Part shown: piece by piece, positions 15,587-46,075 of the stretch
Layout of the letters: each line of letters begins with the position of its first letter
Numbering within the stretch: position 1 is the stretch's first letter
Source: a virus
Direction: 5' to 3' (one strand)
Virus record (IMG/VR): IMGVR_UViG_3300029796_000300
Length of the DNA stretch: 64,000 nt
The notes under the pieces: generated by a model
What the model was told of the DNA's origin: nothing
The model's input: only the letters and a program-made list of their open reading frames with translations
The model's database searches: none
Translations under genes and position numbers: made by a program

Positions 15587-15722
15587 CACCTCCCTCCACA
15601 GGGAAGTGCCGACCGCCTACCGTATATGGTAACGCCTTTCTGGCTCCTTTTGGAGCATTGTTATCTTACCAAAAAGGCCCCGCTTTGTCAATTTCCACCG
15701 CCCACGGTTTATCCGCAGGTGG

Positions 15723-17117
15723 TTATTTTTTTGCCTCGGCTGCTGCATGGGGAAGCCGCACCCAGCCGCCCTTATGACGAACAAGCTGGATTTTCTTCAT
15801 GCTGACCATAAGCGGCTTTCCATCCGTGAGTAGGCTTAATGCCCTGCCATAGCTGGAGCAGCCCTTGGAAACGTATTTGCGATTGCCGTAGACCACGATA
15901 TCTCCCGGCTGCATGGCATATCTCTGCTTTCTGGTCGAGGTTCGGCCCTTTGACTTCTTACAGCCACGGAACCGGCGCAGATTTTCGCCGTCAAGGTTAT
16001 GATTGCGGTTCGTCCTGCCGGAGGACAGCTCGTTGCCAGAACGGATAACTCCCTTTTCCCGTGTGTCGTAATATTTGGCGTCATAGAATTTGGATAGGAC
16101 TCTGTTGTTTCGCCTGTATTTCTGGAAGACCTCTGTTTCGCATCTGGCTTCCGGACGCAGCTCGCCCATGCAGTAGGCATCCGTAGCGCAGGAATACGGG
16201 AGGCCGAGGTTGGTGCGGACGCGCTTGGAGATGACGCCATAGGTCATGTGTACTTCCGCAACACCCTGGAAGCGAGCCATCGCACGCTGATAGAGAATCC
16301 AGCGCACGCTATTCATAAACGCTTCGCCGGTATATTTCCGCAGAGGCTTATCGAAGCCCCACAGCTTCCCGCCCTCCTTGTGATTGGCAGGTGTGTTGCA
16401 CTTCTCGCAGCAGGTCGCAAGCTCCCTCATGCTGTTCCCATGCAGACCTTTCCAGTAGTAGGCGTGATGGACATGAAGGATAGCGCCGTCTTTCAGGCCT
16501 CTCTTGCAATACACACAGGTATAGTGGTCCCGTTCAAAGACCGCTTCCCGCAGCGTATCGTAGCCGTACTGCGGTCCATGCTGATAGTCCTTGCCCTGCG
16601 GGACAGGTTCCCCTGCCTCCAGCGCCGCAAGGAGCTGTGTATCGTATGTCGCGGCCTTGATAAAGACATCCGTGACAGGCATGACAGACAGATAACGGGA
16701 GATAATATCCAGGTGCCGCTCCACCTTGTTGTCCAGAGACGGAGCAATCCAACCGGGCTTTTTGCCTGATACACGGTTATTGAACCGTGCAGCCCGATAC
16801 CGCAGGCGGTTTCTGCGCGTCCGGCGGTACGCTCGGCAGTCGTCATGGCGAGAGCGCTCGTTCGTGAGCATATCATATTGCTGCGATACGACCTCTTTTG
16901 CCTTTGTCTTAATGCTGACGCCGATATGCTCATATCCGGTGCCGACGCACATTTCGATGGGCTGGGTATAGGTACTGGTATCGTAGGTCAGCTGGATGGT
17001 GAACGGGTTCCGCTTCGCAATCACAGCGCGGCCATCCTTCAACAGATGGCGCACTTTGCCGTAATTTTCGGTCGGCATCAGCCGTTCACCGTTTGCACTT
17101 AAAACACATACTGGCAT
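15723..17117 (-). CDS. IscB-family protein (PLMP, bridge helix, HNH zinc finger present) with RuvC catalytic residues substituted (RuvC-I D->T, RuvC-II E->K, RuvC-III H->C) relative to the canonical copy at 29896..31188
   Basis: Pairwise alignment by eye: ILGVDAGSKTIG vs EMCVGTGYEHIG; VVVETAEFD vs VFIKAATYD; HTNDALAIA vs SCATDAYCM; HNH HVHH kept, N->E. Confidence 0.8.
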   Translation of the reverse strand: MPVCVLSANGERLMPTENYGKVRHLLKDGRAVIAKRNPFTIQLTYDTSTYTQPIEMCVGTGYEHIGVSIKTKAKEVVSQQYDMLTNERSRHDDCRAYRRTRRNRLRYRAARFNNRVSGKKPGWIAPSLDNKVERHLDIISRYLSVMPVTDVFIKAATYDTQLLAALEAGEPVPQGKDYQHGPQYGYDTLREAVFERDHYTCVYCKRGLKDGAILHVHHAYYWKGLHGNSMRELATCCEKCNTPANHKEGGKLWGFDKPLRKYTGEAFMNSVRWILYQRAMARFQGVAEVHMTYGVISKRVRTNLGLPYSCATDAYCMGELRPEARCETEVFQKYRRNNRVLSKFYDAKYYDTREKGVIRSGNELSSGRTNRNHNLDGENLRRFRGCKKSKGRTSTRKQRYAMQPGDIVVYGNRKYVSKGCSSYGRALSLLTDGKPLMVSMKKIQLVRHKGGWVRLPHAAAEAKK

Positions 17118-17640
17118 CTTATTTTTTCCTTTCACGCTGCGGGTGCAGTTTCCTGTCATTCGATGGGGGACGTCAACTGCGTGATGCTCCGTTTGCGGGG
17201 GGCTGCGGTATAGCTACCTGTCATTTGGTGGGGGACGTCAACCTGTCAATCCGGATTGCAATTTAATCGTACGGTATAGCTCCCTGTCATTTGGTGGGGG
17301 ACGTCAACTGAAGTTGAGTTTGCCGAGTATATTCCAAACGACAAACCAAAAAGGTAAATCAGCACTTACCGCTCACGCGGCGTTACTGTGGTCCACATCG
17401 CCAAGGATATACCGGGTTTGATGGTACGCACACTTCTCCTTCCCCTCAGAGATGTTTAATACGCACCCGCAGAGCGGCGGACTTGTGGAGTATCCGCCGG
17501 TGCCTATGTATTCCGGCATATCGTAGTCTTGCGGCTGAGGCTTATTGACGAGGCTTACTCTCCTTGCGGGTCATAAGCCACACCAAATGACAGGAGGCTG
17601 AGCCGGAGTTTCCGGCGCACCCGCCCGCCATTCGGCGGGG
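17118..17640 (-). ncRNA. putative IscB omega-RNA region upstream of iscB-like gene (shares conserved core with region 31189-31470)
   Basis: Structured, non-coding, homologous motif ...ctcagag.tgtttaa...ccgcagag...ccgccggtgcctat... shared with second IscB locus. Confidence 0.45.
17139..17313. repeat. three direct copies of 26-bp unit CCTGTCATTTGGTGGGGGACGTCAAC at ~70-bp period; unit is complementary to CACCAAATGACAGG at 17586-17599
   Basis: Direct reading of sequence. Confidence 0.75.
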
Positions 17641-17645
17641 TAAAG

Positions 17646-17984
17646 CTAAAGAGCAGCGTCCTGATTGACAGGACATTCGAGACTCATGTTTTTTCTCTTC
17701 TCACAGGACTCTGCCTGCGACCACAAGCTGTTTGGCAGATTGAGCACCGTTACGAGGACATCCCCGGCAAACAGATAGACGTGCCGGTGATATACTCGAA
17801 TATTGTTGATGGTTTTGTTTTTGAAGCGGATGGATGTAAGGTATCCATTCAGGTGGCCTCTGGTCTCCGAGTGCTTCACGCCAAAGTCAAAGGCTTTCTG
17901 TGCATTGCGCACGGCTGCTCTTTTGCCGAGACCAGCACGCTGTTTTGTACGCTTCCTCGCGTGTTTACTTACCTGCGCTGACAT
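17646..17984 (-). CDS. basic hypothetical protein (MSAQVSKHARKRTKQ...)
   Basis: Internal Met of ORF 17646..18128; weak RBS. Confidence 0.3.
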   Translation of the reverse strand: MSAQVSKHARKRTKQRAGLGKRAAVRNAQKAFDFGVKHSETRGHLNGYLTSIRFKNKTINNIRVYHRHVYLFAGDVLVTVLNLPNSLWSQAESCEKRKNMSLECPVNQDAAL

Positions 17985-18567
17985 GGTTCGTATCATTCTG
18001 ATGGACAGACACCGCGTTGCGATTGGCCTGCCGAATGAGCGACAGGATATCGTCCAGCCTGTTTCCGCCAAAGTACACAAGTAATGGCTGATACAGCGCC
18101 AATACCGCCACAACAAAGCAGACGGCATCAGCAGTACCCGCAGGGAAATCCGCCCGTGCCATAACTACAGAATACAGGCTTGCCAGCAGTACAATCGCCG
18201 CTGTGAGGGAAAGAACGGTATGGAAGAATAAAGCGAGCGCCTTACTCACAGCACCGCAGTTGGCGAACTTCTTCTCCACGAAATACTTCGCAGCCGGCAA
18301 GCCCACCAGGACTGCCAGCAGCACAAGCTGGATACCAAGAGAGACTTTGGGAATCTGGAACTCCCGGCTCTGGAAGAACAGCGTCACGCGGCTGCCGACG
18401 TTCAGGGTTTCAATGAGTAGGAATAGCCACAGAACCGCAAGCACCAGCGGTCTCGGCGCATTGAGCTTGCCCACGGCGAAATCGCACAACACCCATAGCA
18501 CAATGAGTACCGCAAGCTGCGGCATCATGAGCCGCCCTAATTCCAGAGCAAAACTAACAAAAGTCAT
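17965..18567 (-). CDS. polytopic membrane protein (several hydrophobic helices)
   Basis: 200-aa ORF, strongly hydrophobic. Confidence 0.55.
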   Translation of the reverse strand: MTFVSFALELGRLMMPQLAVLIVLWVLCDFAVGKLNAPRPLVLAVLWLFLLIETLNVGSRVTLFFQSREFQIPKVSLGIQLVLLAVLVGLPAAKYFVEKKFANCGAVSKALALFFHTVLSLTAAIVLLASLYSVVMARADFPAGTADAVCFVVAVLALYQPLLVYFGGNRLDDILSLIRQANRNAVSVHQNDTNHVSAGK

Positions 18568-18598
18568 TGTTCATTCCTCCTGAAAAATTTACCGATTC

Positions 18599-18674
18599 CT
18601 GTCATTTGGTGGGGGACGTCAATCCTGCGGGCCAGATGATACTCCCTGTCATTTGCTGTGGCACATCAACGATT
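18599..18674. repeat. two further copies (one degenerate) of the 26-bp CCTGTCATTTGGTGGGGGACGTCAA unit
   Basis: Direct reading. Confidence 0.65.
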
Positions 18675-18699
18675 AAAAAGACGAGAATTCCCCTACTTG

Positions 18700-19010
18700 A
18701 GAAAACCAAAGATTTGGTAAATCAGCACTTACCGCTCACGCGGCGTTACTGTGGTCCACATCGCCAAGGATATACCGGGTTTGATGGTACGCACACTTCT
18801 CCTTCCCCTCAGAGATGTTTAATACGCACCCGCAGAGCAGCGGACTTGTGGAGCATCCACCGGTGCCTATGGATTCCGGCATATCGTAGCCTTGCGGCTG
18901 AGGCTTATTGACGAGGCTTACTCCCCTTGCGGGTCATAAGCCACACCAAATGACAGGAGGCTGGGTCGGAGTTTCCGGCGCACCCGCCCGCCATTCGGCG
19001 GGAGTGCAGA
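18700..19010 (-). ncRNA. orphan near-identical duplicate (~300 bp, a few SNPs) of the omega-RNA-like segment 17341-17640, not adjacent to any iscB
   Basis: Near-identity over ~300 bp incl. CACCAAATGACAGGAGGCTG at 18946. Confidence 0.45.
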
Positions 19011-19382
19011 CTAATTGTTGTAGGAATTGAAGGGGCAAAGCATACACTTTTGCAGGTCCTCGCCGCAGAACTGGCAGAAATCCACCTCGCTTTCCCGCAT
19101 CTTCTCAAAGATGGCGGCGAAGTTCGGCCAGTGGAAGCCCAGCGCCTTTCCGAGACTGTCGAGAAGCACATCCTGTGATAGGGCGGAAAACAATTCCGCG
19201 TCGCACAGCGGTTCGTCTGTCTCCGAATTGATGGGACAGACGATAACAGAGCCGCCGGTGATGTCTTCCCGCCATTGCGGCGGTGTTTCCCGGATGGTGT
19301 TGCCCTCCGTGTCCACAGTTTTTCTGGCCACCGTGTAGACGCCGCGCTGCACTACGACCGTGCTGCTCTTTGCATCCGGCAT
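19011..19382 (-). CDS. hypothetical Cys-containing protein
   Basis: 123-aa ORF directly downstream of helicase. Confidence 0.5.
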   Translation of the reverse strand: MPDAKSSTVVVQRGVYTVARKTVDTEGNTIRETPPQWREDITGGSVIVCPINSETDEPLCDAELFSALSQDVLLDSLGKALGFHWPNFAAIFEKMRESEVDFCQFCGEDLQKCMLCPFNSYNN

Positions 19383-19384
19383 TT

Positions 19385-21385
19385 TCAGTCTCCTTTCCCC
19401 GCCGCCAGCAGGCGCGGCACAAACTCAGATACTTCCAGTTTTTCTTGGTACATCTTCCGGCAGGTGATGATTTCCAGCTCATGCCGTGCCCGCGTCGCTC
19501 CGACGTAGAACGCTCGCGCATCCTCTTCGTCATCCTCCGCGTCGCGGTCATCGCTGTCACCGGGAATGATGCCAGATACCATGTCGATTAAGATGACCTT
19601 ATCGAACTCCAGACCTTTACTGGAATGGATGGTGGTAACGGTCACATTGGAATCCTCGCAGCCCTTATATTCCGTGATGTTTTTGAGTGCGGCAAGAAAG
19701 TCCGGAATGGTCGAATACTTCTCCGCTACCATCTTCAAAATGCTGATACGCAGGCGGATAAACTGCTCGGAAGCACCGGCGTCAATTTTCTTCGTCAGCC
19801 AGTTGCTCCAATAGTCGAGCATGAACAGAATGTAGTCGATAGCCTCAGCAGGCTTCTTCTTCGCAAGGTCGGAAAAGTCCCTCGGCAGGCATTCTATTTT
19901 CCATGCGTATCCCTTGCCGCCTGCAAATTTCATCGCGGCGCTGAATACGTTCCGGCACTCCCCTTCTTCAACCGCCTCGATAATGCGCTTGGCGGTGACG
20001 CCCTTCATGTAAAGGCCCATTTTGTAGTACAGATGCCCAAAAGCGGTGGTGTCAGCAGGGTTCAGGGCCAGAAGCATAAAGTCGAGCAGGTCCCGAATGA
20101 CGTAGTTCGTCATGAAGGTCCCCGTCGCATCTCTGGTTTGAACCTGAATGCCGTTCATCTGGAGCAGATTGATAAGAGGGATGGCAGAGTCGTTATTCCG
20201 ATACAGAATTGCCAGGGATTCATCCGGCTTCTGATTCCGGATGCGCTCCAGCAGAAGCTCCGCCTGCTGTTCCATGCGGTCGATGCAGGTCACGACGATG
20301 GCTCCGTCCTTTTGGGACTGGGCACGCATATTCTTGTCGAGTCGTCTCGTATTCAGTTTGATGAACTGATTGGCCGCTGAGACGATGTTCCTGTCGCTGC
20401 GGTAATTGGTCTCCATACGCAGGATACAGGGTTCGTTATAGTTGCTCTGGAAGTCCAGCAGTGCGGCAGGATACGCGCCTCGGAAGCCGTAGATGCTCTG
20501 GTCTTCGTCTCCGACCATGAAGATATTGCCATTCCGCCCAACCAGCTTCTGGACGATAAGGTGCTGGACATACGAGGTGTCCTGCGCCTCGTCCACACTC
20601 ACATAGCGGAACTTCTCATGCGCCCGCTGTAAGATGTCCTGGTATTCATCCAGCAAATCATTTGCCATGAGAAGCTGGTCATCAAAATCCATTAAATCAT
20701 GCTCGCTCATGTAGAGCTTGTACGCCTGGTAAAAAGCAGAAAAATCAAGGCTGTTTTCTTCGATGGCCTCAATTTCCTGAAAGGTCATGAGCTTGTTTTT
20801 TACTTTGCACACCTTCTGCGCGAGAGACCGCACCTGTGAATCACTGGGATACTCCGGAAGCATCTTAGCCGCAATAGCACGGACGATGCTCTCGTTGTTC
20901 GGCACCAGCTTTGGTACATGAATGTACTTCTCTTTCGCACAGGTATTGATGACGGACAGGCAGAAGCTGTTGATAGTGGAGAATACCGGTATCCGTTCCG
21001 GGGCAAACTTCTTTATGAAACGCTCCTTCATTTCCTTTGCCGCAGCGCGGGTATAAGTGATGGTCAGGATATTCTCCGGCTTTACGCCTGCGACATACAT
21101 GAGATAGCCGGTTCTCGCTACGATGACCGTAGTTTTTCCGCTTCCCGGCACAGCAAGGAGCAGCGTTGCTCCATTCACGCGCCGGACAGCGGCTTCCTGC
21201 TGTTCGTTGAGTCCGCAAATATTGAATTTTTGGCAAAAAGTGTGGTAATCCAATGCAGCGCACCCCCGAACTTTTATATTTACATTATACCACACATTAG
21301 CTTGATTGTCAATTCGTTTCAGAAAAGCTAAGCGCCCCAAGACAAGGAGCGCTTGGCTTGCTGGCTGACGTCTACTGCTTCTCAA
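19385..21385 (-). CDS. UvrD/PcrA/Rep-family SF1 DNA helicase (N-terminal extent uncertain)
   Basis: Motif I AVPGSGKTTV, motif II FRYVSVDEAQDTSY, motif III MVGDEDQSIYGFRGA, motif V/VI TVTTIHSSKGLEFD. Confidence 0.8.
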   Translation of the reverse strand: MRSSRRQPASQALLVLGRLAFLKRIDNQANVWYNVNIKVRGCAALDYHTFCQKFNICGLNEQQEAAVRRVNGATLLLAVPGSGKTTVIVARTGYLMYVAGVKPENILTITYTRAAAKEMKERFIKKFAPERIPVFSTINSFCLSVINTCAKEKYIHVPKLVPNNESIVRAIAAKMLPEYPSDSQVRSLAQKVCKVKNKLMTFQEIEAIEENSLDFSAFYQAYKLYMSEHDLMDFDDQLLMANDLLDEYQDILQRAHEKFRYVSVDEAQDTSYVQHLIVQKLVGRNGNIFMVGDEDQSIYGFRGAYPAALLDFQSNYNEPCILRMETNYRSDRNIVSAANQFIKLNTRRLDKNMRAQSQKDGAIVVTCIDRMEQQAELLLERIRNQKPDESLAILYRNNDSAIPLINLLQMNGIQVQTRDATGTFMTNYVIRDLLDFMLLALNPADTTAFGHLYYKMGLYMKGVTAKRIIEAVEEGECRNVFSAAMKFAGGKGYAWKIECLPRDFSDLAKKKPAEAIDYILFMLDYWSNWLTKKIDAGASEQFIRLRISILKMVAEKYSTIPDFLAALKNITEYKGCEDSNVTVTTIHSSKGLEFDKVILIDMVSGIIPGDSDDRDAEDDEEDARAFYVGATRARHELEIITCRKMYQEKLEVSEFVPRLLAAGKGD
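21283..21311 (-). promoter_or_regulatory. consensus promoter TTGACA-N17-TATAAT with TGTGG extended -10 (type A)
   Basis: rc: TTGACAATCAAGCTAATGTGTGGTATAAT. Confidence 0.6.
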
Positions 21386-24599: not shown

Positions 24600-24795
24600 T
24601 ATGATGATTTCTCCGTCTGAGCACTCAATGACGGAATAGGCTCCCTCACTCGAAATATTGACACTCCCCACGGCTAAAGCCGGGGGATTCCTGGTTCAAC
24701 GACCGCAGCCTGCACGAGCGAGGTCTTACATGGTCTCCCCAGGCGTATCGGTTCGGGCGTGTCCCGCCCTACCATGAGCAAAAAGTCTATCAGGC
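24600..24795 (-). ncRNA. putative TnpB omega-RNA (reRNA) at 3' end of tnpB / right end of IS
   Basis: Structured GC-rich hairpins immediately 3' of tnpB (CCCACGGCTAAAGCCGGGGG etc.). Confidence 0.4.
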
Positions 24796-25911
24796 TGCGG
24801 ACGACCGCTTGCGAAGCCCCTCTTCCAGGATGTTCTGCGCCGCGTTGATGTCGCGGTCATGGAACGCGCCGCACTGCGGACAGGTCCAAAACCGGATACC
24901 GAGGTCTTTGACCTCTTTGTTTTGATATCCGCAACAGCCGCAAGTCTGGCTGGATGGGAAGAACCTGCCGATGATGACGAGTTCCTTGCCATACCAGTCA
25001 GCCTTGTAGGCAAGCTGCCTGCGGATTTCGCCCCATGCGGCGTCCGCAACATGGAGCGCGAGCTTGTGGTTCTTCATCATGTTTTTGGAGGACAAGTCCT
25101 CTATGCAGATGATGTCATTGCTCCGCACAAGCTGCGTCGTCATCTTATGGATGGCGTCATTCCGTTGGTTAGCAATATGCTCATGTAACCGCGCAATTTT
25201 AACGCGAGCTTTCTCACGGTTGCAGCTCCCCTTTGATTTTCGGGAGAGCTGCCGTTGGAGGCGGGCCAGCTTCTTGAGATTGCGGCGGTAGCTATGGAGG
25301 TTGTCGTACTTCACGCCATCCGATGTGATAGCCAAGTCCTTGATGCCGAGGTCTATGCCGACAGCGGCTCCGGTCTTTGGCAGCGACTTGATGTCCACGT
25401 CGGTACAGCAAAGGGAAACATAGTATTTGCCGCTGGCTTCCTGTGACACAGTAGCAGAGAGCACTCGGCCCTCCACCTTGCGGCTGACGCGGCACTTGAC
25501 ATTGCCGAGCTTCGGGAGCTGCATCGCACCGTCCAGCACCTTGATATTGGTGCCGACGCATTTGCTTTTATAGCTGCGGCGGTGCTGGCGCTTGCTCTTG
25601 AAGCATGGAAATCCCGGCTTCTCACCGTGCTTCACACGGCGGAAGAAGTTCTGGTAGGCGGTATCCAAGTCACGCAGGGACGATTGCAGCGCAGTAGAAT
25701 CCACCTCGCCGAGCCACGGACGTTGTTTCTTCAAGGCGGTCATATCGGCGGAGCAGGCCTTATAGCCAAGTGTCGTCTTGTCTGTCTTGTAAGCGTCAAT
25801 ACGCTTGGCGAGATAGTAGTTATAGACGAAGCGGCAGCATCCAAAGGTTCGTTGTATCTGAATCGTTTGCTCTTTCGTAGGGTAGATACGAAATCTGTAA
25901 CTATGCTCCAT
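24790..25911 (-). CDS. tnpB: TnpB (IS200/IS605 family OrfB; RuvC-like nuclease, intact catalytic motifs)
   Basis: [10 protein letters not shown]; [10 protein letters not shown] (D); ICIEDL (E); CGCCG...[18 protein letters not shown]. Confidence 0.85.
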
Positions 25912-25957
25912 GAAATCACCGCCTTTCATACTTGATTATACCATATTTTCGTGGTTT

Positions 25958-29895: not shown

Positions 29896-31188
29896 CTATG
29901 CAACCAAATAACTTTGGCTGCGTTCCAATAGTTTTAAGTGTTTGTAGCTCACGCCGTCTTTGACCTTTTCTCCGTTGAGCTGCCGCAGCAGGAAGGAGCC
30001 GCTGGTGCGTCTCCCCCAGACAAAGCACTCGATACCGTTGTAGAGCACCTTGTCGTAGAGGCGGAAGCCGCAGATGTACTTCTCTGCCTGATTGGCCTTC
30101 CGCACACCGCCCTTCAGGATGGTCGCCTTGTGCAGCTGACGGTTGTGATGTCTCACAGGGCAGATGGTGTAAAGTTGGTCCGCCTGACGGATATTTGGCA
30201 GGTATTCTGCGCGAAAGCCCTGCGGGCCGTGCGCGATTGCCAGCGCGTCGTTGGTATGGCTCTTCGGCAGCACCAGCAGATTCTCCCGCGTAGCCTTGGT
30301 GATGTAGCCCCTGGTCTCCACAACGGGGACAGGAAGCTGCTCCCGCAGCCTCCGCAGCAGCGTCATGCGCATGATGCCCATGAAGGTTGCGTCGCGGGTG
30401 GAGCGGCGCTTGCGCTTCTTGATGTCCGCTGCCATGATAATGCCCTTGTGGAGCTTATCGTGACAGGCGGTACAGAGCGTTACCAGATTGTCCGGAGCGT
30501 CACCGCCTACCCTGCGGCTCTCAAGATGATGCACATGGAGCGGGACGCCCTTCCTGACGGAGCCATGCACCCCGCAGATGCGGCAGGTATAGCTGTCGCG
30601 CCACAGGACGTACTGGCGCACGTTGTAGTGGCCGTACATCTCGCCCTTCTGGTAGTCCTCGCCCTGCGGAACAGGCTTCCCTTCCGCAACGGCCTTGAGG
30701 AGCTGCAAGTCGAACTCGGCGGTCTCTACAACCACCTTGCTGACAGGCAGGATGGCGCAGGCACGCCGGATGGCGGTCATGTGCTCCTGAATCTTGACCT
30801 CCACGGAGGGCGCAAGCCAGCCTTTGTGCTTGCTCCGCACGCGATTGTCGAAGCGTGGCTTGCGATACCGGGTGGTACGATTGCGCCGCGCACGGCGGAA
30901 TTGCCTGCGTGCGGACATCAGCTCGACTACATCGTTGCGCGGCTTGACCTCTGCGGAGAACAGTTCCTCCGTTTCGGTGGCAGCTGAAAGACCAATGGTT
31001 TTGCTGCCGGCGTCCACACCGAGGATGACCTCCTGCGTATAGCCGGTACTGCCGTAGAGCAGCTGAATGGTAAATGGTGTTCTGTGTCTCACTTTTGCCT
31101 TGCCCGCATCCAGAAGATGACGGGCCTTCGCCGGTGTGCAGGGCATCAGCGGACGCCCGTGCCGATTGAGAACATAGACCTTTGGCAT
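29896..31188 (-). CDS. iscB: IscB (OMEGA RNA-guided nuclease; PLMP, RuvC-I/II/III, bridge helix, HNH all intact)
   Basis: RPLMPCTP; ILGVDAGSKTIG; RRARRNRTTRYRKPRFDNR; VVVETAEFD; CRICG...HVHH...DNLVTLCTACHDKLH; HTNDALAIA. Confidence 0.85.
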   Translation of the reverse strand: MPKVYVLNRHGRPLMPCTPAKARHLLDAGKAKVRHRTPFTIQLLYGSTGYTQEVILGVDAGSKTIGLSAATETEELFSAEVKPRNDVVELMSARRQFRRARRNRTTRYRKPRFDNRVRSKHKGWLAPSVEVKIQEHMTAIRRACAILPVSKVVVETAEFDLQLLKAVAEGKPVPQGEDYQKGEMYGHYNVRQYVLWRDSYTCRICGVHGSVRKGVPLHVHHLESRRVGGDAPDNLVTLCTACHDKLHKGIIMAADIKKRKRRSTRDATFMGIMRMTLLRRLREQLPVPVVETRGYITKATRENLLVLPKSHTNDALAIAHGPQGFRAEYLPNIRQADQLYTICPVRHHNRQLHKATILKGGVRKANQAEKYICGFRLYDKVLYNGIECFVWGRRTSGSFLLRQLNGEKVKDGVSYKHLKLLERSQSYLVA

Positions 31189-31470
31189 ACGTTGATGCCT
31201 CCTTTCTTTGGGTGCGGCTAAAAATTAAGCCGCTCAGCCTTTCGGCTGTCAGGTATCCGTACCCAATGTTATCCCAGGGTTTTGTGTATGCAGCACTGCT
31301 CCTTACCCTCAGAGCTGTTTAACCACACACCGCAGAGTGGCAGATTCGGATTCACGTCCGCCGGTGCCTATCTATTCCTGGGTAACGTAGTGTTCGAAAC
31401 ACTTAGGGTAGTCAATCAGGCTCGTGGTTCGCACCACAAGCCCCCGGCTTTAGCCGTGGGGTTACATTGA
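31189..31470 (-). ncRNA. putative IscB omega-RNA immediately upstream of iscB
   Basis: Non-coding structured region homologous to 17400-17560 core; terminal hairpin CCCCCGGCTTTAGCCGTGGGG. Confidence 0.5.
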
Positions 31471-33200
31471 CTTTGAGGGACCCCTCTCACTTTGGCCTTT
31501 TCGATTTTTCCAATCACTTCTGTTACCTTCTGTGCAGTCAGAGGGCTGGCGGTGGATTTATCCAGTGCGTCCAGCAGTTCCGGCAGCTCGCCGAGTTTTA
31601 CGACCGGGATTTCGCTGTTGTCCGCATCCTGCAATTTTACATTTGGGTTGGCAAGGCAGATGATGCCGCATACCGGAACATCCTCACCAACGATTTTCGA
31701 CAGTAAGGCAGCGTGACGCTTAACTTGGAAAGCTGGGCTTTCCGTTGTGGTGAAATGCCCTGCATTTCGCATATCCCGGTCCCAATAGTTCGTGTCATCG
31801 ACGCGGATGGTTCCAACGTAGTTTTTTGTCTCAATATGAATGACGCCGGCAGGTCCTACGAGGAGGTGGTCGATTTCCTGTGGCTCTTTCATATAGTCCC
31901 ACGCGGCGATACGGATACATCCTCCGCTGTACTTGCTCACGCAGTCTGCCGCGATGCTGCGGTATGCGCTGTGCTCTGCAAGCCACCACTTGAGTTTGTA
32001 ATTCACTTCCCTCTCACCGGCTTCGCCCAGTTCTCGTGCTTTGCGCTCCCGCTCCTCCTGCTCTTGCTCCACACGAGCGGCTTCCGCCGCCGCGCTGGCG
32101 ATTTGATTGCGGTAGTTCGAGCACACGCTTTCCGCGAGACCAGTCACGCCTTCCAGTATCAGATTAAGCTGACTATTGAGTTGAAAATGTTTGGCCGCTA
32201 TTTCGCTGCGCAAGTGCAAGATGTTTTTCGATTTTTCGAGAAGCACACACTCACCGAGCGTAAGGTCGGAGTAAGCGTCGCAGAAGGCATCTGGGATATT
32301 GAGCCTGCACTTCTCCATTATCCAGCTTTTTACTTCCGCTCTCTTCTGTGCTCTGACACAGCAATACTCCGGATGCGTCCGCTCCAACGTGTCGATGTAC
32401 TGTCGCGCATGGGCGATGATGCCGCTTCGCTCCGCAGCAATCGCTGCTTCCTCGGCCTGCTTCGCCTCCGCTTCCCGGCATCTGGCCTCTTCCTGCCTGC
32501 GTTGCCGCTCCTCACGGATATGCTGCGCGGTCTTCCCGCTTACGCCAGGTTTGAACTCGTACATCTTTCCGGTCGCAAACAGGGCTTTCAGCAGGACGGA
32601 GACATAATAGGCGCTGTACGGAATCAGCAGGACAATGCCAAGGTAGCAGAACACATAGGATACGACGCCGAGAGCCTTCCACAACGAGACGACCAGGACG
32701 AAGGCCGCAACGTAGGCGGCCAGATAGATAAGGCATTTTGTCCTCTGATTTTTGTCGCGAGTCATGGTCAAGAATTTGCTCTGCTCCACATAATCCGCAT
32801 ACTGTTCATCCGATACGACTTTCTGCCACTCGTCCGCCATGCTGCGGTTTGCAAAGAAGAAGGTTCGGAGCATTAACAACAAACCGATAACCGCCAGCAA
32901 AATGAAGGCCACAATGCAGACACAAAGGAGTGCGAGCACAGCGCTAATCACCTTGAGGATACCGTGACCGAGCAGTTCGGCGAGCCATCCGCACAGCTGG
33001 GTCGCCAGAATTCCGCCCATGCCGATGCAGAAGGTCTTAGTGAGCAGTGCAGCTTCCTTTTTCAGTGTTGCCTTGACTGTACTGTAGTATGTTTCCGCAG
33101 ACCTTATCCCCTCGTTGTTCTCCACAATTTCCCGTGCGGCATCCATGTACTTATGAAGCCGGTCAACAAACCAATCTTTGATGGAATCCAACATAAGCAA
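31416..33200 (-). CDS. membrane-anchored NERD (nuclease-related) domain protein
   Basis: N-terminal TM helices; C-terminal ...NYKLKWWL...DHLLVGPAGVIHIETKNYVG NERD pattern; 3' end overlaps omega-RNA region. Confidence 0.65.
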   Translation of the reverse strand: MLMLDSIKDWFVDRLHKYMDAAREIVENNEGIRSAETYYSTVKATLKKEAALLTKTFCIGMGGILATQLCGWLAELLGHGILKVISAVLALLCVCIVAFILLAVIGLLLMLRTFFFANRSMADEWQKVVSDEQYADYVEQSKFLTMTRDKNQRTKCLIYLAAYVAAFVLVVSLWKALGVVSYVFCYLGIVLLIPYSAYYVSVLLKALFATGKMYEFKPGVSGKTAQHIREERQRRQEEARCREAEAKQAEEAAIAAERSGIIAHARQYIDTLERTHPEYCCVRAQKRAEVKSWIMEKCRLNIPDAFCDAYSDLTLGECVLLEKSKNILHLRSEIAAKHFQLNSQLNLILEGVTGLAESVCSNYRNQIASAAAEAARVEQEQEERERKARELGEAGEREVNYKLKWWLAEHSAYRSIAADCVSKYSGGCIRIAAWDYMKEPQEIDHLLVGPAGVIHIETKNYVGTIRVDDTNYWDRDMRNAGHFTTTESPAFQVKRHAALLSKIVGEDVPVCGIICLANPNVKLQDADNSEIPVVKLGELPELLDALDKSTASPLTAQKVTEVIGKIEKAKVRGVPQSQCNPTAKAGGLWCEPRA

Positions 33201-36936: not shown

Positions 36937-39429
36937 TCAGCGCCTGAAGGCAGCGCAAGTACGCTTCTGCTCAATTCGGCGCTTCGCAGCGGCTCTTGCT
37001 TTTGGGTCAGTCGTTATCAGGTATTCTTCCGTATCCGTCGCCTTAACATTGATGAAAATGTGGTTCTCATTTGCGGTCAGGAGACAGGTTCCACGGTCCA
37101 TGGTTTTTACACGCTTGAGTTCCTCGTCGGTCAGACCAATCGCATCCGCAATCGCGTTTGCTTCCTCTTTTTCACTGCGCAAAATCATTTTGATTTTGGC
37201 GTTTCCGATGATGGCGGTGCCAATTCCCGCAGAGAAGAAGTCTGCGATATTCTGCGTGGCAGCGACGGCGCTTCCACCGAAGCCTCGGATAGTACGGAAG
37301 ATTTCGACCACGAAATTGGCGGCTTCGATAGGTGCATCGGAGCAGACCAAGCGCCAAGTCTCGTCAATGAAAACACACTTGTTGACGTTCCGATTTTCTT
37401 TGCATTTATCCCAAACATAATCCAATGCAAGGAACATAGCAACAGGAAGAAAGTCTTTCTGCGCATCGGAAACATCCAGCACTACGAACTTGTTGTTAAG
37501 GTTCACATTGGTTTGCGCGTTGAACGAAGATGCAGAACCTGTGGTGTATCGCGTCAGCAAACGGCACAAACGATTTGCTGGTGCGCCCATCTTTTCCAGT
37601 TCAGAATATACATCCGAAAGGATAGGCATTTTACGGTATTTCTTCTTGTCGTTGGGGTCCAACAGGCTCTTGTTCTTATGGGTAATTCCGAAATTGCCGT
37701 AAGTTTTCAGCAGCGCGTCATCCACATACTGCACCTCTTCTGGCGTCATGTCCGGGATAATCAGCTTAAAGAAAATGAGAAGCTGCTGGATTTTCTGTGC
37801 CAAAATCGAGCCGGAAGTGACCAACGCACCATCGTCATCGTAGACGTTGCCCTCTTCCTTCTTGCGTATCTCCATGATATTGATATTCTGTCCGGAGCCA
37901 GGTTTGATTTCAATGAAACTGCCCCCGACCTTCTCACAAAGCGGCAGGAACTCCTTGCCTTTCAGCGGCGCGATAATGAAGGTTTGAACCCCCTTCTCCC
38001 GCATTCTCAATGCCAGAACCTGTGTGGTGAAGGTCTTACCGGAGCCAGAGGAGCCGACAATATTGATGTTGGCATTGATGTATTGCTGGCGGTCGAAGAA
38101 GTTGACCAGAACCGGTGATTTGAACACATCATCCACGCCCAGCATCACGCCGTCCTTATCGCACAGCTCCGAAGATGTGAACATATAGGTGGACGCAAAA
38201 TCGGAACACAGAATATTTCTGCGGCTCTTACGGAATAGGTTTTTGTCATACTCACATACGGGAATGGTGGAGCGAAACGCTTCTGCTTGCTGGAAAGTAC
38301 AAGGCTTGAGAGTCAATTCTCTCTCAATGAAAATGCGCCGGATTTCCTTGAATTTGTAGTCAATTTCTCGCTCGCTTTCGCCTGTAATAGTGAGCATTGT
38401 AGACATATAGGCAAATTCGTCGCCGGCCGAGAGAGAGCTTTTCAGATAGTATCCTGCGTCCACCGCAGCCTTCACATCATCGTAGTCACTACTGGTGGTT
38501 TCTGTGTTGCGGAAGCGCATTGCATTGAACCGCAGGCCATGATGCAGTGCCGTTTGAATTTTCTCCGGTGAAATCTTCTGAAGCCAAACATCCACATCAA
38601 TCCCCTCTCCCAGCCCTGCCAGCAGCTGCATCCAGCCGCCAAGAACGCGCACAGGATAGGCATTGCTCGGAAGATAGCAGCACATATAGTAGATGCCATC
38701 CACGATGATATATCGGGGACTTGACTCCGTATCAATACAGTACGGAGCAAGCACATCATTGACAGGAAGATGCGCCGCGCTATCTCGCGTGAAGTCGATG
38801 TTTGCCGCCGTATATCGGGCAACAACATCCGCCATTCTCTCGTCAAACGGGTGGTTCGCGCTCTGTGCTCTGGACATGATATCGTAAAGCGTGGAAAGCA
38901 CATAGACGTCATCGTGAGGCCTTGAAATCATAATGTTGCCGCAGGCCCGAAGGTTGCTTCTGATGGCGTCCTCCTGTCTCGTAATGGTGCTTCTGATTTC
39001 ATTCCATGATGGTGAACGATGTGCGAATCCCTCTTCTTCCTCATACTGGAATGCGAGAAAGAAGCGACGGGATACGCCTTGCGACGCGCCAAATTCTGAC
39101 ATCATGTTGATTTGCTCCCGCATCAGTTCACGGGTTCCTTCATTCTTTTCATGGCGCACGCTTTCCACCATGCCGGAAATATAGTGTTCGACATTTGCGC
39201 GATTGGACAGAACTTTGATTTGGACAACGCTTGGAAACGAGCGGATTGCAGCCGCATATTGTGCCGTAATCATGTTCTTATCCTCGTTTGACCGTAAGCC
39301 GTAGTTGATAGGAGAGAACTCCATCAACTTCACAAATTTCCCGTCTTTCGTGACGATGATGCCGTCACGGACATCACTTATGGGCGAGAAAGATTGGCAG
39401 CTTATTACTTGTTTCAGTTTTCTGGACAT
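36937..39429 (-). CDS. VirB4/TraE/TcpF-like type IV secretion ATPase
   Basis: Walker A GSSGSGKTF, Walker B VFIDETWRL, size ~830 aa. Confidence 0.85.
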   Translation of the reverse strand: MSRKLKQVISCQSFSPISDVRDGIIVTKDGKFVKLMEFSPINYGLRSNEDKNMITAQYAAAIRSFPSVVQIKVLSNRANVEHYISGMVESVRHEKNEGTRELMREQINMMSEFGASQGVSRRFFLAFQYEEEEGFAHRSPSWNEIRSTITRQEDAIRSNLRACGNIMISRPHDDVYVLSTLYDIMSRAQSANHPFDERMADVVARYTAANIDFTRDSAAHLPVNDVLAPYCIDTESSPRYIIVDGIYYMCCYLPSNAYPVRVLGGWMQLLAGLGEGIDVDVWLQKISPEKIQTALHHGLRFNAMRFRNTETTSSDYDDVKAAVDAGYYLKSSLSAGDEFAYMSTMLTITGESEREIDYKFKEIRRIFIERELTLKPCTFQQAEAFRSTIPVCEYDKNLFRKSRRNILCSDFASTYMFTSSELCDKDGVMLGVDDVFKSPVLVNFFDRQQYINANINIVGSSGSGKTFTTQVLALRMREKGVQTFIIAPLKGKEFLPLCEKVGGSFIEIKPGSGQNINIMEIRKKEEGNVYDDDGALVTSGSILAQKIQQLLIFFKLIIPDMTPEEVQYVDDALLKTYGNFGITHKNKSLLDPNDKKKYRKMPILSDVYSELEKMGAPANRLCRLLTRYTTGSASSFNAQTNVNLNNKFVVLDVSDAQKDFLPVAMFLALDYVWDKCKENRNVNKCVFIDETWRLVCSDAPIEAANFVVEIFRTIRGFGGSAVAATQNIADFFSAGIGTAIIGNAKIKMILRSEKEEANAIADAIGLTDEELKRVKTMDRGTCLLTANENHIFINVKATDTEEYLITTDPKARAAAKRRIEQKRTCAAFRR

Positions 39430-42464: not shown

Positions 42465-44741
42465 TTACCGCATCCCCGGCAGCTTCCCCGACATTCTCGG
42501 TTTCCCTGTAGTCGGCGTAGAACTGAAGCTGCGCTTCGGCGGTGCTGGGCGCTTCCCACCCTGCGCTACATCTTTTGCTTCGGCAGGCGTGGGGGCTTCC
42601 TTCGGTTTGCTTATGTCTTCCTGCTGCGGTTCTGTTTCGTCCTCGGCGCTTTCCAAGTCGATATCTGCGTTCGGCTTTGCGTCAACGGACAGTACCGGCT
42701 CCTGCTGTGCAGGTGGTGCTGAAGGTTCGACCGCCTGCTCCTCGTCTGTCTCGTCTACCTCGATGTATTCATCACCGCAGTCCTCGACCTCTATCACATC
42801 GTCATCGGAGCCTTTCTTATTTATCTCCTTGACGTATGCAATAACGGCATCCTTGCTCTCTTCCCAAATGCTTTGTACTGGTATCGAGTTGCACATCCCC
42901 GTGTACGAACGGTCTACCTCGTTGATGTGCGGATGCGTGATATTGAAAGTGTCCAGAATATTTTGCTGACGCTGATAAAACAGCTCTCGCCCCTCTTTGT
43001 CGGTGATGGGTGGGATTTCACGGAAGTCAAAATTGCTGAGTTTCTTGGCGTCCGTATGAAGCGTGTGGGGGTATTTTTTCGCAAGTATAGGGTTATGCCC
43101 CTGAAAGATAATGATGCTGTCGTTCTTCCCCATCTTAAATGCTTCATCCAGCCCCACCAGCGCACGCTTACCTTCGCCAGATGACCAGTTGTGAAGGAAC
43201 TCGTTGTTTTTCAGCAGCGTTTCCATCGCCTTATGCTGGTTGGTCCGGACGTTTACGGTCGTATCACCGATACGAGAGGACACCATTTTCGCGGTAAATT
43301 CGTCGTTGATACCAAGGCTCACTAATGTCGAGCAGTTACTCAGGAGGGTTGCCCAGGTTGTCTGGTAGTTGTTCTGAAGCTGGGTGATGTCCTGAAATAT
43401 CATGCAGACATTCATGGCACGCTTTCGAATCGTCGCCATTTTTCGGTCAAAATCCGGAATCGTGCCGATGGACGGAAACTCGTCCAGCAGGAAATCAACA
43501 GGGACATCGAGCTTACGGTCCTTGCCGTTATTATCCGCGTCGTTGATAAGGGTAATGAACAGCATGGAGAAGAACAGGGATACGATGAATTTGTAGGTGT
43601 CATGGCTATCAGGGAAAATGCAGAAATAAGCGCAAGGCTGCTTTCCGGGCAGAGACATATCAATGCAGGGGGTGGAGAGCAGCGTCCGCACTTTTGCGTC
43701 ATCCATAACCCCGATATCTGCCGCAAGGTTCACAATGAGGTTGCCGCGAAGATTCGGTGAGGACTGCTTGAAGGTCATGTACGGTCCGACGCAGGGTTGT
43801 TCCTCCGGCGTAAGACTGTCCGGGTCAAACATCATATCCAGATATGTCTCTCCCCCTGGGTTCTTGAGCATCTGATGGACAGAGTTGATATTTTTCTTCT
43901 CAGGCGGGTAGTCATGTCCAAGCGCAACGCGCAGAAGGAGCGCCTTCAGAAGAGATTTCGGCCCGCTCTCGTAAATGCCAGCACTCCCTCCGGCGTTGGA
44001 AATAATAACATTTGCAAAAATCTCTGCATTTTCGCCAATACGTTCCGGGTCTGCCAAAAGTGAGTCCATACAGTTCCAGCCGTCGCTCTTGCTGATATTG
44101 TGCAGGTCGAAGCGTCGCACGACATATCCGTTGTCCATGAAGTACCTTGCCATATCTGCGTAAAGACCGCCGTCCGGGTCTGTGAATATCAGGGATTCCC
44201 GGCGTTTTACCGCCTGGAAAGCGTAGTTCTTTGTAAAGGTATAGGTCTTGCCGCAGCCTGACGCGCCGATGACGGCGATGTGCCGGTTCGCACGGTTCAT
44301 TTTATCCTCTCGGAATACAATGGGGTAGCGGCCTGTCTCGTCCAGCTGTCCGAGGATAGTGCCAACTGCCTGCGGCTCATGCTGGATGATGGCGACATCC
44401 TCGTATTCTTTCGGGTCCTCAAAGTGCGCTTCTCCGTATGTCTTGCGGCCAATCGCCATGGAAAACAAGCGACCCATCTTATCGACGCCCGCTTCCTCGG
44501 AAGCGGAGTATGCCATCAGGATGGAAATGCCAATACCGATGAAAAGAAAACAGCCGAGGAACATCTTCCACGGAAAGCCGTACTCACCGAAGAGGCGAAT
44601 TAAACGGAACGGGTTGAGCGTGGACTTCACTACGGAAATGCTGAGAACAATCCCCGTCATGTAAATAGACAATATGAGGACTACCAGCAATGCGATTTTC
44701 AGTCTGCGAATCAGATTCTGCTGTTGTTGAGTCATGGTCAC
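42465..44741 (-). CDS. VirD4/TraG/TcpA-like type IV coupling protein
   Basis: N-terminal TM helices; Walker A GASGCGKT; Walker B-like FLLDEFPSIG; size 758 aa. Confidence 0.75.
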   Translation of the reverse strand: MTMTQQQQNLIRRLKIALLVVLILSIYMTGIVLSISVVKSTLNPFRLIRLFGEYGFPWKMFLGCFLFIGIGISILMAYSASEEAGVDKMGRLFSMAIGRKTYGEAHFEDPKEYEDVAIIQHEPQAVGTILGQLDETGRYPIVFREDKMNRANRHIAVIGASGCGKTYTFTKNYAFQAVKRRESLIFTDPDGGLYADMARYFMDNGYVVRRFDLHNISKSDGWNCMDSLLADPERIGENAEIFANVIISNAGGSAGIYESGPKSLLKALLLRVALGHDYPPEKKNINSVHQMLKNPGGETYLDMMFDPDSLTPEEQPCVGPYMTFKQSSPNLRGNLIVNLAADIGVMDDAKVRTLLSTPCIDMSLPGKQPCAYFCIFPDSHDTYKFIVSLFFSMLFITLINDADNNGKDRKLDVPVDFLLDEFPSIGTIPDFDRKMATIRKRAMNVCMIFQDITQLQNNYQTTWATLLSNCSTLVSLGINDEFTAKMVSSRIGDTTVNVRTNQHKAMETLLKNNEFLHNWSSGEGKRALVGLDEAFKMGKNDSIIIFQGHNPILAKKYPHTLHTDAKKLSNFDFREIPPITDKEGRELFYQRQQNILDTFNITHPHINEVDRSYTGMCNSIPVQSIWEESKDAVIAYVKEINKKGSDDDVIEVEDCGDEYIEVDETDEEQAVEPSAPPAQQEPVLSVDAKPNADIDLESAEDETEPQQEDISKPKEAPTPAEAKDVAQGGKRPAPPKRSFSSTPTTGKPRMSGKLPGMR

Positions 44742-44749
44742 TTACCTCC

Positions 44750-46075
44750 TCACCGTCCGCCGTAAGCGGGCCAGTATGTATTTTGCGCGAGATTGCCTCG
44801 CTCCACAGAATCTCCGACGCCATCACGCGGACGCTCAAATTTCAGGCACCACAGGAGTCCGGCCTCATACGCGCCATCTGATGTATTAGGCAGGTCCTTG
44901 ATGGCGTTCCACGCTGTACGCTCCGAAGATTCGATTTCGGTCTTGAAAAACCAGAGCTGTCCTTCTATAGAGTCTTCAGCAAAACCGTTTTCCTGCAAAA
45001 AGCTCAGTAGTGCTGTCTTTCTGCTATAGGACCACTGGCATAAACCATAACCTTCTCCCAGTCCATCTCCGTATGCGTTTTTATCCTCATGTCTTGCCGG
45101 GTTAAAACCAGATTCATTTTGGATATTTGCCATAACCCCGCAGGCGGCAGCATTGTTCAGGCCAAGTTCTTCTGTCAGGAAGGAGAACACCTTCTCCTTG
45201 TTGGTGCCGCCCTGGATTTCCGAAAATGCTGTTTCAGGATATTCTACATGAACGATATAGCCGTTTTTCGCGGCTTTGTATGTGGTCGATGCTGTATAGT
45301 GGTTTTTTGCAACACCGCCGCCTGGGATTTGACCGCCGCCAGTTGTGTTGCCCTCGACCGTGTACCATCCAGTTTCATCCACCTCAACAATGATACCGAT
45401 GTGATTAAAAGGCTTAGCCAGCCTTAGATTACCAGTCTCTGAAAAAAACATAAGGTCGCCCGGAACTGGTGTATAAGAACCACCGAACGGGGTTGTGCTT
45501 CGAACGGGATAGTATGCGTAGCCGTATCTTCCCGTGAGTTTCTTGAACATACTTGAGCAACTGGCATCCTTTGGAATTGTATTTTCCAAAAGGTCACATT
45601 CATTTGCGCACCAAGAGACAAACGCCGCGCACCACTGTCCGGAACGGTGGCTGCCATAGTACCAGTCGTTGTATTTGACATAATTCGAGTTCGGCGGGAT
45701 TTCAATGGAATCATCCAAGCCGAGTTGGCTGAGCGCGACTTCAACGATATTGCTGCCATTTCCGCCTTCTCCAGTCGAAACACCAAGGTATTGCTTTGTG
45801 GTCAGAATGTTATTCCGATACCACTCTTCCTGATACCCTGCTTGCCGCTCATATTCGTTTCCGGTGTCGTCATCCGTCCAGTCCTTCTCAAGATACTTAT
45901 TATAGTCCCAGCCGAAGGAGGTTTCATACGATTCCTGGACTTCATCCCAATGCTCACCAAATGCGCCGCTTACGCTCTTGCCGTCAATGGCAAATACGGT
46001 AGCTGTCATGCAGGATACCGAGAGAATACCGCACAGCAGTGAGGAAAGCATCTTTTTCCAGATATGGGTAGTCAT
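44750..46075 (-). CDS. secreted bifunctional peptidoglycan hydrolase: CHAP domain + lysozyme-like domain (CwlT/TcpG-like)
   Basis: Signal peptide; GQWCAAFVSWCANE (CHAP Cys); CGVMANIQNESGFNP...GYGLCQW lysozyme-like. Confidence 0.7.
   Translation of the reverse strand: MTTHIWKKMLSSLLCGILSVSCMTATVFAIDGKSVSGAFGEHWDEVQESYETSFGWDYNKYLEKDWTDDDTGNEYERQAGYQEEWYRNNILTTKQYLGVSTGEGGNGSNIVEVALSQLGLDDSIEIPPNSNYVKYNDWYYGSHRSGQWCAAFVSWCANECDLLENTIPKDASCSSMFKKLTGRYGYAYYPVRSTTPFGGSYTPVPGDLMFFSETGNLRLAKPFNHIGIIVEVDETGWYTVEGNTTGGGQIPGGGVAKNHYTASTTYKAAKNGYIVHVEYPETAFSEIQGGTNKEKVFSFLTEELGLNNAAACGVMANIQNESGFNPARHEDKNAYGDGLGEGYGLCQWSYSRKTALLSFLQENGFAEDSIEGQLWFFKTEIESSERTAWNAIKDLPNTSDGAYEAGLLWCLKFERPRDGVGDSVERGNLAQNTYWPAYGGR

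Follow-up and report, generated by a model that had tools for sequence, protein, structure and literature searches.

CRISPR arrays have joined IscB repeatedly and independently according to two reports (PMC10691335; PMC12660989), which, citing Altae-Tran et al. 2021, describe one such protein, DelIscB, as an active double-strand nuclease whose RNA carries repeats and an anti-repeat. Loss of a nuclease domain is also on record. A RuvC-inactivated, HNH-active IscB of the type called OMEGA (for obligate mobile element-guided activity) was found beside an inactive Cas12 and a helix-turn-helix (HTH) protein and was proposed to be a nickase, and a RuvC-dead Cas9 without an array was found in phage (Altae-Tran et al. 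2023, PMC10910872). A review on OMEGA dated September 2026 names no nuclease-dead derivatives other than TldR and Cas12c/m (PMC13565253). Here we describe a locus in a 64,000-nt stretch of DNA listed as viral (IMG/VR record IMGVR_UViG_3300029796_000300; the whole stretch is called the window) in which a RuvC-inactivated IscB gene, copy A (15,723-17,117, minus strand), follows a small CRISPR-like array and a duplicated omegaRNA that lacks its 5' part. With a probability of roughly 0.6, we read this locus as a minimal Cas9-like CRISPR module derived from an ordinary OMEGA IscB, its protein being a RuvC-dead, dual-RNA-guided nickase of the target strand or a binder. No IscB combining RuvC loss, an array of its own and a split, duplicated omegaRNA was found described in the literature searched.

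As DelIscB is portrayed in those reports, the two loci share an effector of about 450-500 amino acids and an upstream noncoding RNA with repeats, spacers and an anti-repeat, an arrangement intermediate between OMEGA and type II systems. They differ in that DelIscB cuts both strands, whereas the RuvC domain of copy A is inactivated, and in that the array of copy A lies downstream of a duplicated scaffold that resembles trans-activating CRISPR RNA (tracrRNA), right before the start codon. They also differ in provenance, DelIscB coming from an aquatic sample and copy A from a gut Firmicute, where it sits on what looks like a conjugative element. Since the nearest relatives of copy A are ordinary OMEGA elements, a separate origin is suggested, and the locus is probably a CRISPR-associated IscB that arose independently. 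The cases in PMC10910872 resemble copy A in that RuvC was lost and HNH apparently retained, and the Cas9 case is likewise on a mobile element; in that IscB system, however, the array belongs to the Cas12, whereas the omegaRNA of copy A is itself predicted to pair with the repeat and there is no adjacent Cas12.

Copy A encodes 464 amino acids from MPVCVL, with a ribosome-binding site (GAAAGGA) 8 nt ahead of the ATG at 17,117; the mechanical open reading frame (ORF) extends to 17,159. The window contains a second IscB ORF, copy B (29,896-31,188, minus strand). As an earlier reading of the sequence alone (the sequence-only reading) had stated, the two can be aligned (35% identity over 385 aligned columns, E 2e-51) and both match Pfam RRXRR (PF14239; E 5.8e-41 for copy A), but its term paralog is misleading, since copy B belongs to another clade at that level of identity. 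Copy A scored 243.8 bits with the NCBIfam equivalog guided_IscB (cut-off 175). Structure prediction, proposed by the same reading as a check, gave an AlphaFold2 model with an IscB fold (pLDDT 82.5, pTM 0.74), whose best Foldseek matches were IscB-omegaRNA-DNA complexes (E 2.5e-24 for 8csz); family, fold and domain order are those of canonical OMEGA IscB (OgeuIscB, PDB 7utn/7xht/8csz). Sequence and predicted fold thus both place copy A in the IscB family, yet it has neither the full set of RuvC catalytic residues nor the single omegaRNA that go with membership.

To map the catalytic residues, we aligned copy A to copy B, to 118 database homologues and to solved IscB structures including OgeuIscB. 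All three comparisons gave D59G in RuvC-I (CVGTG vs GVDAG/GIDPG) and E154K in RuvC-II (VFIKAAT vs VVLELNR); RuvC-III carries H310C (YSCATDAY vs KDHYLDAY) with D313 retained. With three of the four RuvC catalytic residues replaced, the D/E/H/D set of an IscB is lost, and none of the alignments, to copy B, to 114 clade relatives and to OgeuIscB, shows these residues at shifted positions. The sequence-only reading had the E-to-K and H-to-C changes right; its D-to-T change came from a register one residue off and is really D59G. It was also correct in taking copy B to be catalytically complete, with D/E/H/D and a standard HNH. In the HNH domain of copy A, the HVHH motif and the four zinc-finger Cys are present. 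An Asn-to-Glu replacement had been taken there for a lesion, which it is not, because 117 of 118 clade homologues carry Glu at that site; the true change, overlooked, is H241N at the His after the second CxxC, a residue that is His in 112 of 114 clade relatives. We take residue 241 to be the position of Asn863 in SpCas9, and Asn at this HNH metal-ligand position is normal in Cas9. The Pfam HNH score of copy A was 15.8 bits vs 21.4. Gly, Lys, Cys and Asn at positions 59, 154, 310 and 241 were the same in every one of about 27 independent metagenome and genome copies with readable positions, and the substitutions are therefore not due to chance.

We located 27 copy A-type genes in IMG/VR, in human-gut metagenomes and in one Oscillospiraceae genome; three run off the contig end, and among the 24 readable to the stop codon 20 are full length. 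The ratio of nonsynonymous to synonymous change (pN/pS) against the window copy was 0.07-0.15 in the most diverged pairs (pS 0.05-0.08), and copy A is under purifying selection with a pN/pS of about 0.1. When the 139 columns conserved at ≥90% in the clade were considered, copy A differed at 13, ten of which lie in RuvC-I/II/III (D59G, E154K, G156A, F158Y, A265E, I275L, T297S, K308Y, H310C and N312T). Elsewhere, departures amounted to 1 of 24 columns in HNH, 1 of 19 in PLMP and 0 of 23 in the C-terminal region interacting with the target-adjacent motif (TAM). PLMP, the bridge helix, HNH and the C-terminal region are retained, in line with the initial statement that PLMP, bridge helix, zinc finger and HVHH were kept. 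Because the losses cluster in RuvC, the protein is under selection and the predicted IscB fold is intact, the decay is specific to the RuvC active site. Within the clade of copy A (50-59% identity) D/E/H/D is the rule, and G/K/C is confined to its own cluster (≥96% identity), whose two representatives stand for 195 and 1,925 sequences (about 2,100 in total). No nuclease-active homologue of copy A above 59% identity was found among 5.8 billion proteins. The omegaRNA differs between strains by 0.3-2% vs 5-6% at synonymous sites, that is, it changes 3-10 times more slowly than these. The proposal that copy A is a functional RNA-guided IscB without RuvC cleavage finds support in the pN/pS, the RuvC-focused losses, the predicted fold and this slow omegaRNA.

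Rfam HEARO (RF02033) gave three matches in the window, one before copy B and two at the copy A locus, on the minus strand at 17,386-17,549 (86.6 bits, gathering score 83) and 18,749-18,968 (93.7 bits). In both of the latter, the first 50 or so model positions are missing or poorly aligned, and both are carried by a 287-nt direct repeat (17,353-17,639 and 18,716-19,002; 97% identical, 8 differences). The conserved omegaRNA claimed at the outset therefore stands as far as the core is concerned, which, pseudoknot region included, lies above the Rfam threshold as in canonical OMEGA IscB; it does not stand for the 5' end, and the RNA is duplicated and followed by an array. OmegaRNA copy 2 (17,353-17,597, putative 5' end; all features on the minus strand) comprises the anti-repeat CCTGTCATTTGGTGTGG (17,578-17,594), hairpin 2 (17,552-17,579), GTCAAT as the 3' strand of helix P1 (17,544-17,549) and a terminator-like hairpin GGTAAGTGCTGATTTACC plus T run (17,353-17,370). 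OmegaRNA copy 1 corresponds to the upstream 287-nt unit (18,716-19,002, minus strand). A terminator-like hairpin and T run close each of the two copies, and repeats come next. The duplicated unit starts with a hairpin, CCCGCCGAATGGCGGG (17,624-17,639, minus strand), a degenerate copy of the repeat with A-to-G changes that stands upstream of each anti-repeat and, as read from the sequence, could still pair with it through G-U pairs; it is probably what is left of the hairpin 1 that the RNA originally had in cis. A promoter and terminator scan of 15,600-19,450 returned counts at the level of shuffled sequence. The assemblies of four loci in IMG/VR (L003, L005, L008 and L009) are interrupted ahead of the array, some 100-170 nt before its first repeat and 280-400 bp before the start codon of IscB, probably owing to confusion of assemblers by the duplicated 287-nt unit, and because of such breaks automated surveys may miss the structure of the locus.

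In the closest intact relative (P0006, locus L002, 57% identity), which is devoid of the repeats, an ordinary omegaRNA lies 77 nt ahead of the ATG, and the 5' layout of that RNA is guide, GUCAAU, hairpin 1, hairpin 2 and AUUGAC, with P1 and hairpin 1 in cis. Of hairpin 1, the omegaRNA of copy A retains the 3' strand (CCUGUCAUUUGGUGUGG); hairpin 2 is also present, as is the 3' strand of P1, flipped to GUCAAU. The RNA lacks the 5' strands of P1 and of hairpin 1, and both partners are found in the 36-nt repeat. Compared with canonical OMEGA IscB, copy A is thus without the RuvC triad, its omegaRNA is without the helix strand next to the guide and without the 5' half of hairpin 1, its guides are borne by an array, and this array separates the omegaRNA from the ORF.

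The array before copy A (array 2; 17,142-17,308, minus strand) lies between omegaRNA copy 2 and the IscB start codon and contains three 36-nt repeats: repeat 1 (17,273-17,308), spacer 1 (17,243-17,272, 30 nt), repeat 2 (17,207-17,242), spacer 2 (17,178-17,206, 29 nt) and a degenerate terminal repeat 3 (17,142-17,177). The consensus is GTTGACGTCCCCCACCAAATGACAGGTAGCTATACC, the repeat on the minus strand reads GTTGACGTCCCCCACCAAATGACAGG(T/G/C)AGCTATACC, and the spacing is 65-66 nt. A leader, of which four types exist among strains, extends from the terminator-like hairpin of omegaRNA copy 2 to the first repeat (17,309-17,352, minus strand). A remnant of a second array (array 1; 18,588-18,670, minus strand), made of a degenerate repeat (18,635-18,670) and a repeat (18,588-18,623) 11 nt apart, is constant in most strains. 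It stands directly before the start codon of a gene for a predicted multi-pass membrane protein of 200 amino acids (17,965-18,567, minus strand; no family match), whose ribosome-binding site comes directly after the last repeat. The 25-nt repeat core occurred four times within 3 mismatches vs 0.00 expected, and the repeat was found at the arrays of the copy A locus and nowhere else in the window.

In the 27 loci, the IscB-proximal stretch presented 1-9 repeats of 36 nt with unique spacers of 29-31 nt. About 25 distinct spacers were counted across the roughly 27 loci, and strains have some of these in common but combine them differently; the gene-proximal ones are conserved (widely shared examples are GCAGCCCCCCCGCAAACGGAGCATCACGCA and GTCAAGCGCC...) and the omegaRNA-proximal ones variable, and the array of L015 has no spacer in common with the others. 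Two loci are recombinant: in L018 the upstream array has four repeats (two extra spacers) and the IscB-proximal array one, and in L030 the array 2 leader and one repeat are joined straight to the membrane-protein gene. To judge from these two sequences, arrays 1 and 2 exchange material. The constant repeat and spacer lengths, the polarity and the turnover argue for a CRISPR array and not for a set of operator sites.

We then considered how repeat and omegaRNA fit together. The repeat part CCACCAAAUGACAGG is complementary to the 5' segment of the omegaRNA (the anti-repeat), and the sole P1 partner for GUCAAU is the (G/A)UUGAC at the start of the repeat. The minimum-energy structure computed by RNAcofold for repeat plus omegaRNA is a three-way junction with P1 and hairpin 1 rebuilt, and the predicted binding was -27.1 kcal/mol, whereas shuffled repeats gave -7.1 +/- 2.7. 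The changes seen among 25 repeat variants are concentrated at positions 7-9, which are unpaired, and at the mismatched position 12, where C-to-A makes a pair; at paired positions, 21 of 25 transitions preserve pairing. The anti-repeat is invariant among strains, and a covariation search gave one-sided changes only. On the basis of the predicted pairing, repeat and omegaRNA would stand to the canonical omegaRNA as CRISPR RNA (crRNA) and tracrRNA stand to a single-guide RNA. This differs from the single omegaRNA with a fixed guide, as in TldR, that the sequence-only reading had envisaged, the guides coming from a strain-variable array combined with a 5'-truncated, tracrRNA-like omegaRNA.

The mechanism that we propose for the module is as follows. 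The omegaRNA, devoid of the 5' strands of P1 and hairpin 1, would act as a tracrRNA, and each array transcript would contribute the repeat GUUGAC-GU-CCCCCACCAAAUGACAGG together with, 5' of it, a guide that comes from the spacer. Pairing of the repeat GUUGAC with the omegaRNA GUCAAU would restore P1, and that of CCACCAAAUGACAGG with the 5' anti-repeat would restore hairpin 1, and the guide, directly 5' of the repeat, would thereby occupy the canonical guide site of an omegaRNA. The ribonucleoprotein made of tracrRNA-like omegaRNA, crRNA and RuvC-dead IscB would then locate TAM-flanked DNA matching the spacer, and either HNH alone would nick the target strand or the protein would bind and block. 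As judged from the residues, we place the target-strand nickase slightly ahead of the pure binder. IsrB (PDB 8dmb) is a comparable single-strand-cutting, omegaRNA-guided relative, but it has no HNH and its RuvC nicks the non-target strand, so that copy A, with HNH and the target strand, would be its mirror image. The likely targets would be rival mobile elements, or genes that the module would silence; that the spacers are polymorphic and the carrier mobile speaks more for a conflict with other mobile elements than for fixed gene regulation. Type IV-A, Cas12c and Cas12m are also array-guided and bind or silence without double-strand cleavage, and they are often plasmid-borne and often devoid of adaptation genes. 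Their proteins, however, are unrelated or distant (class 1 or TnpB-derived), and none belongs to the IscB/Cas9 lineage.

Several observations weigh against this reading. Premature stops interrupt four of the 24 complete copies, of which three are on contigs with coverage <4. The proteins of the clade with Asn at position 241 are those of two RuvC-compromised lineages plus one protein with a damaged zinc finger, and no others. Because HNH doubles as a conformational gate (PMC12991159), its conservation is no proof of catalysis, and HNH activity in copy A is, from its sequence, uncertain. The bias toward pair-preserving changes in the repeat is weakly above that given by a C/A-rich composition (84% observed, 68% expected). 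Expression and processing of the RNAs are parts of the scheme that we infer, as are HNH activity, the TAM, the targets and spacer acquisition. As for targets, up to 22 spacers and all leader-proximal guides gave no protospacer in the window and fetched loci at up to 3-5 mismatches. BLAST gave none in GenBank phages, where the sole match was a chance one of 27 nt (E 0.6), and none in PLSDB plasmids, and in IMG/VR exact 20-mers of six spacers were matched by the arrays themselves and by nothing else. Finally, cas1 and cas2 were not found among the neighbours scanned with Pfam/NCBIfam, in a screen that covers the window incompletely, or among the best 25 of the 76 PADLOC families matched by 55 window proteins. 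Many compact type II-D and IscB loci are likewise without adaptation genes (PMC9755519).

Some of the same evidence could be accommodated by a regulator of the TldR kind, in which a dead IscB represses promoters of the host or of the element with a few fixed guides and the array merely carries several of these. TldRs, which derive from TnpB, are a precedent (PMC10705468), being OMEGA effectors that have been domesticated, have a dead RuvC and are maintained by selection along with their guide RNA. Copy A likewise has a dead RuvC in a protein under selection, some gene-proximal spacers are common to many strains, and adaptation genes were not found nearby in the incomplete screen; a clade relative with at least three tandem omegaRNAs bearing different guides (P0067, L037) resembles fixed multiplexing. 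However, TldR has a single fixed guide and a known promoter, whereas copy A is an IscB with a variable array and a second nuclease domain, and this HNH is much better preserved than RuvC. Moreover, fixed guides are difficult to reconcile with about 25 spacers among proteins 98-100% identical, with 1-9 repeats per array and with arrays, such as that of L015, that share no spacer with others. Guide-matching targets near promoters, for which the sequence-only reading had proposed a search, were not found in our searches of the window and the fetched flanks, and no guide match of any kind appeared in the 64 kb or those flanks. We consider such a regulator unlikely.

A more ambitious version of the array-guided module would make it a young, independent CRISPR system, with a split omegaRNA and an array without its own cas1/cas2, in which the HNH-only nick loads a helicase for a Cas3-like attack on rival plasmids or integrative conjugative elements and the membrane protein is a further effector. 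A gene for a UvrD/PcrA-family (GajB-like) helicase does lie immediately upstream of the locus and its first omegaRNA (19,385-21,385, minus strand), and helicases are frequent partners of CRISPR effectors that have little nuclease activity. A functional link between helicase and IscB locus is nonetheless speculative, and we hold this version to be quite improbable.

Three other explanations fare worse. The impaired IscB and its tracrRNA-like RNA could be a decoy that soaks up crRNAs of a related, active CRISPR-IscB or Cas9 of the host and so shields the conjugative element; the locus does sit on a mobile element, and the phage Cas9 with inactive RuvC and active HNH was read as biomimicry (PMC10910872). 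This is made very doubtful by the element having polymorphic arrays of its own, unlike the phage case, by the lack of a nuclease-active homologue above 59% identity in the 5.8 billion proteins, and by the 19 metagenome loci with the repeat, in which every copy with readable catalytic positions encodes the dead IscB. The repeats could also be DNA operators for autoregulation, with the 5' part of the omegaRNA as guide and the repeats before iscB and the membrane-protein gene as targets, as their complementarity to that segment and their position just upstream of two start codons would allow. Such a scheme leaves the second complementarity, of GUUGAC with GUCAAU beyond hairpin 2, unexplained, as well as the constant 29-31 nt unique spacers and their strain-to-strain turnover, and in most copies the supposed guide would have a mismatch 3 nt in from the end nearest the TAM, so that we give it hardly any credence. 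The idea of a decaying, functionless transposon remnant, to which the three lost catalytic residues, the few copies with premature stops (P0003 and P0007 also have them) and the lack of an evident transposase or intact IS end (transposon ends were not searched for) might lead, is largely refuted by a pN/pS of about 0.1 with losses confined to RuvC, by an RNA conserved beyond the synonymous rate, and by a frame intact in 20 of 24 complete copies of a gene whose clusters hold about 2,100 sequences.

If the array-guided module is what it seems, it would be the first described RuvC-dead IscB served by its own polymorphic CRISPR array, and it would offer a natural and recent snapshot of an omegaRNA splitting into tracrRNA and crRNA. 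Because the nearest relatives (57-59% identity) keep a single-piece RNA, the transition by which a nuclease of a transposon becomes an effector of CRISPR would be directly testable. It would also extend to the Cas9 lineage the theme of nuclease-deficient, array-guided effectors on mobile elements represented by type IV, Cas12c/m and TldR, and it poses the question of what brings about array turnover where adaptation genes are not at hand locally. On the practical side, a 464-amino-acid protein from a common human-gut bacterium would be a natural candidate nickase or binder guided by two RNAs.

The surroundings of the locus do not look viral. From about 24.5 to 10.5 kb, the genes share a single strand. 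Between the two omegaRNA copies there is a small ORF (17,646-17,912, minus strand; 88 amino acids from an internal start, 160 mechanically) with no family match, and a small zinc-ribbon ORF also precedes omegaRNA copy 1; family searches of the membrane protein, the 88-amino-acid ORF and a 123-amino-acid ORF yielded nothing usable. A VirB4-like ATPase (36,937-39,429), a VirD4/TraG coupling protein (42,465-44,741) and a lysozyme/peptidase, i.e. a cell-wall hydrolase (44,750-46,075), all on the minus strand, were recognized, the first two with Pfam, and PHROGs matched almost nothing among the window proteins. The phage carrier implied by the IMG/VR listing was rejected on these two grounds, the near-empty PHROGs result and the VirB4-like and VirD4/TraG genes. 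In Oscillospiraceae bacterium CM18GR_63, a contig of 571 kb contains a copy that is 99% identical, and the other loci all come from human-gut samples. Because of the type IV secretion system with VirB4-like and VirD4/TraG genes and of the copy within that contig, the carrier looks like an integrative conjugative element of human-gut Oscillospiraceae. When the 55 window proteins were run against PADLOC, matches to "Csx1 (found elsewhere)" (E 4e-47) and MzaA (E 9e-38) appeared, neither of them from the ten proteins that were tested further.

With copies A and B and an IS200/IS605 TnpB of 379 amino acids (24,790-25,929, minus strand; NCBIfam IS200_TnpB, 514 bits, D/E/D motifs present), the window holds three OMEGA-type effectors. 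No TnpA or other feature of an IS200/IS605 transposon was noticed near the copy A locus in the ORF list and family scans, transposon ends not having been searched for. A system of Cas12, IscB and HTH protein was considered and rejected, the sole TnpB/Cas12-like gene being this canonical, intact TnpB 8 kb away; a 739-amino-acid neighbour protein gave no Cas12 signal.

Copy B (430 amino acids) and its complete canonical omegaRNA occupy 29,896-31,471 on the minus strand (HEARO at 31,248-31,471, 118.6 bits) and, by sequence, represent an ordinary OMEGA element of a different IscB clade from copy A. The first 55 or so nucleotides of this omegaRNA overlap the 3' end of an upstream NERD/MADS6-like ORF (31,416-33,200, minus strand), as if the element had been inserted into, or had replaced, the end of that gene. 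Among intact proteins, those nearest to copy A (57-59% identity) belong to ordinary OMEGA elements located elsewhere. Two other members of its clade have altered nuclease domains. In P0067 (L037, gene at 957-2,312) RuvC is compromised (D-to-S, E-to-G) and the CxxC-His is Asn too, and the gene is preceded by the tandem omegaRNA units already mentioned, a partial one at 1-150 followed by complete ones at 303-570 and 642-908. Their scaffolds are about 90% identical and their 5' guide segments differ, so that the tandem units appear to be a different route to several guides. In P0051, in contrast, RuvC is intact and the second HNH zinc-finger pair is CAPDN instead of CxxCH, and this protein may be decaying in the opposite direction, toward HNH loss.

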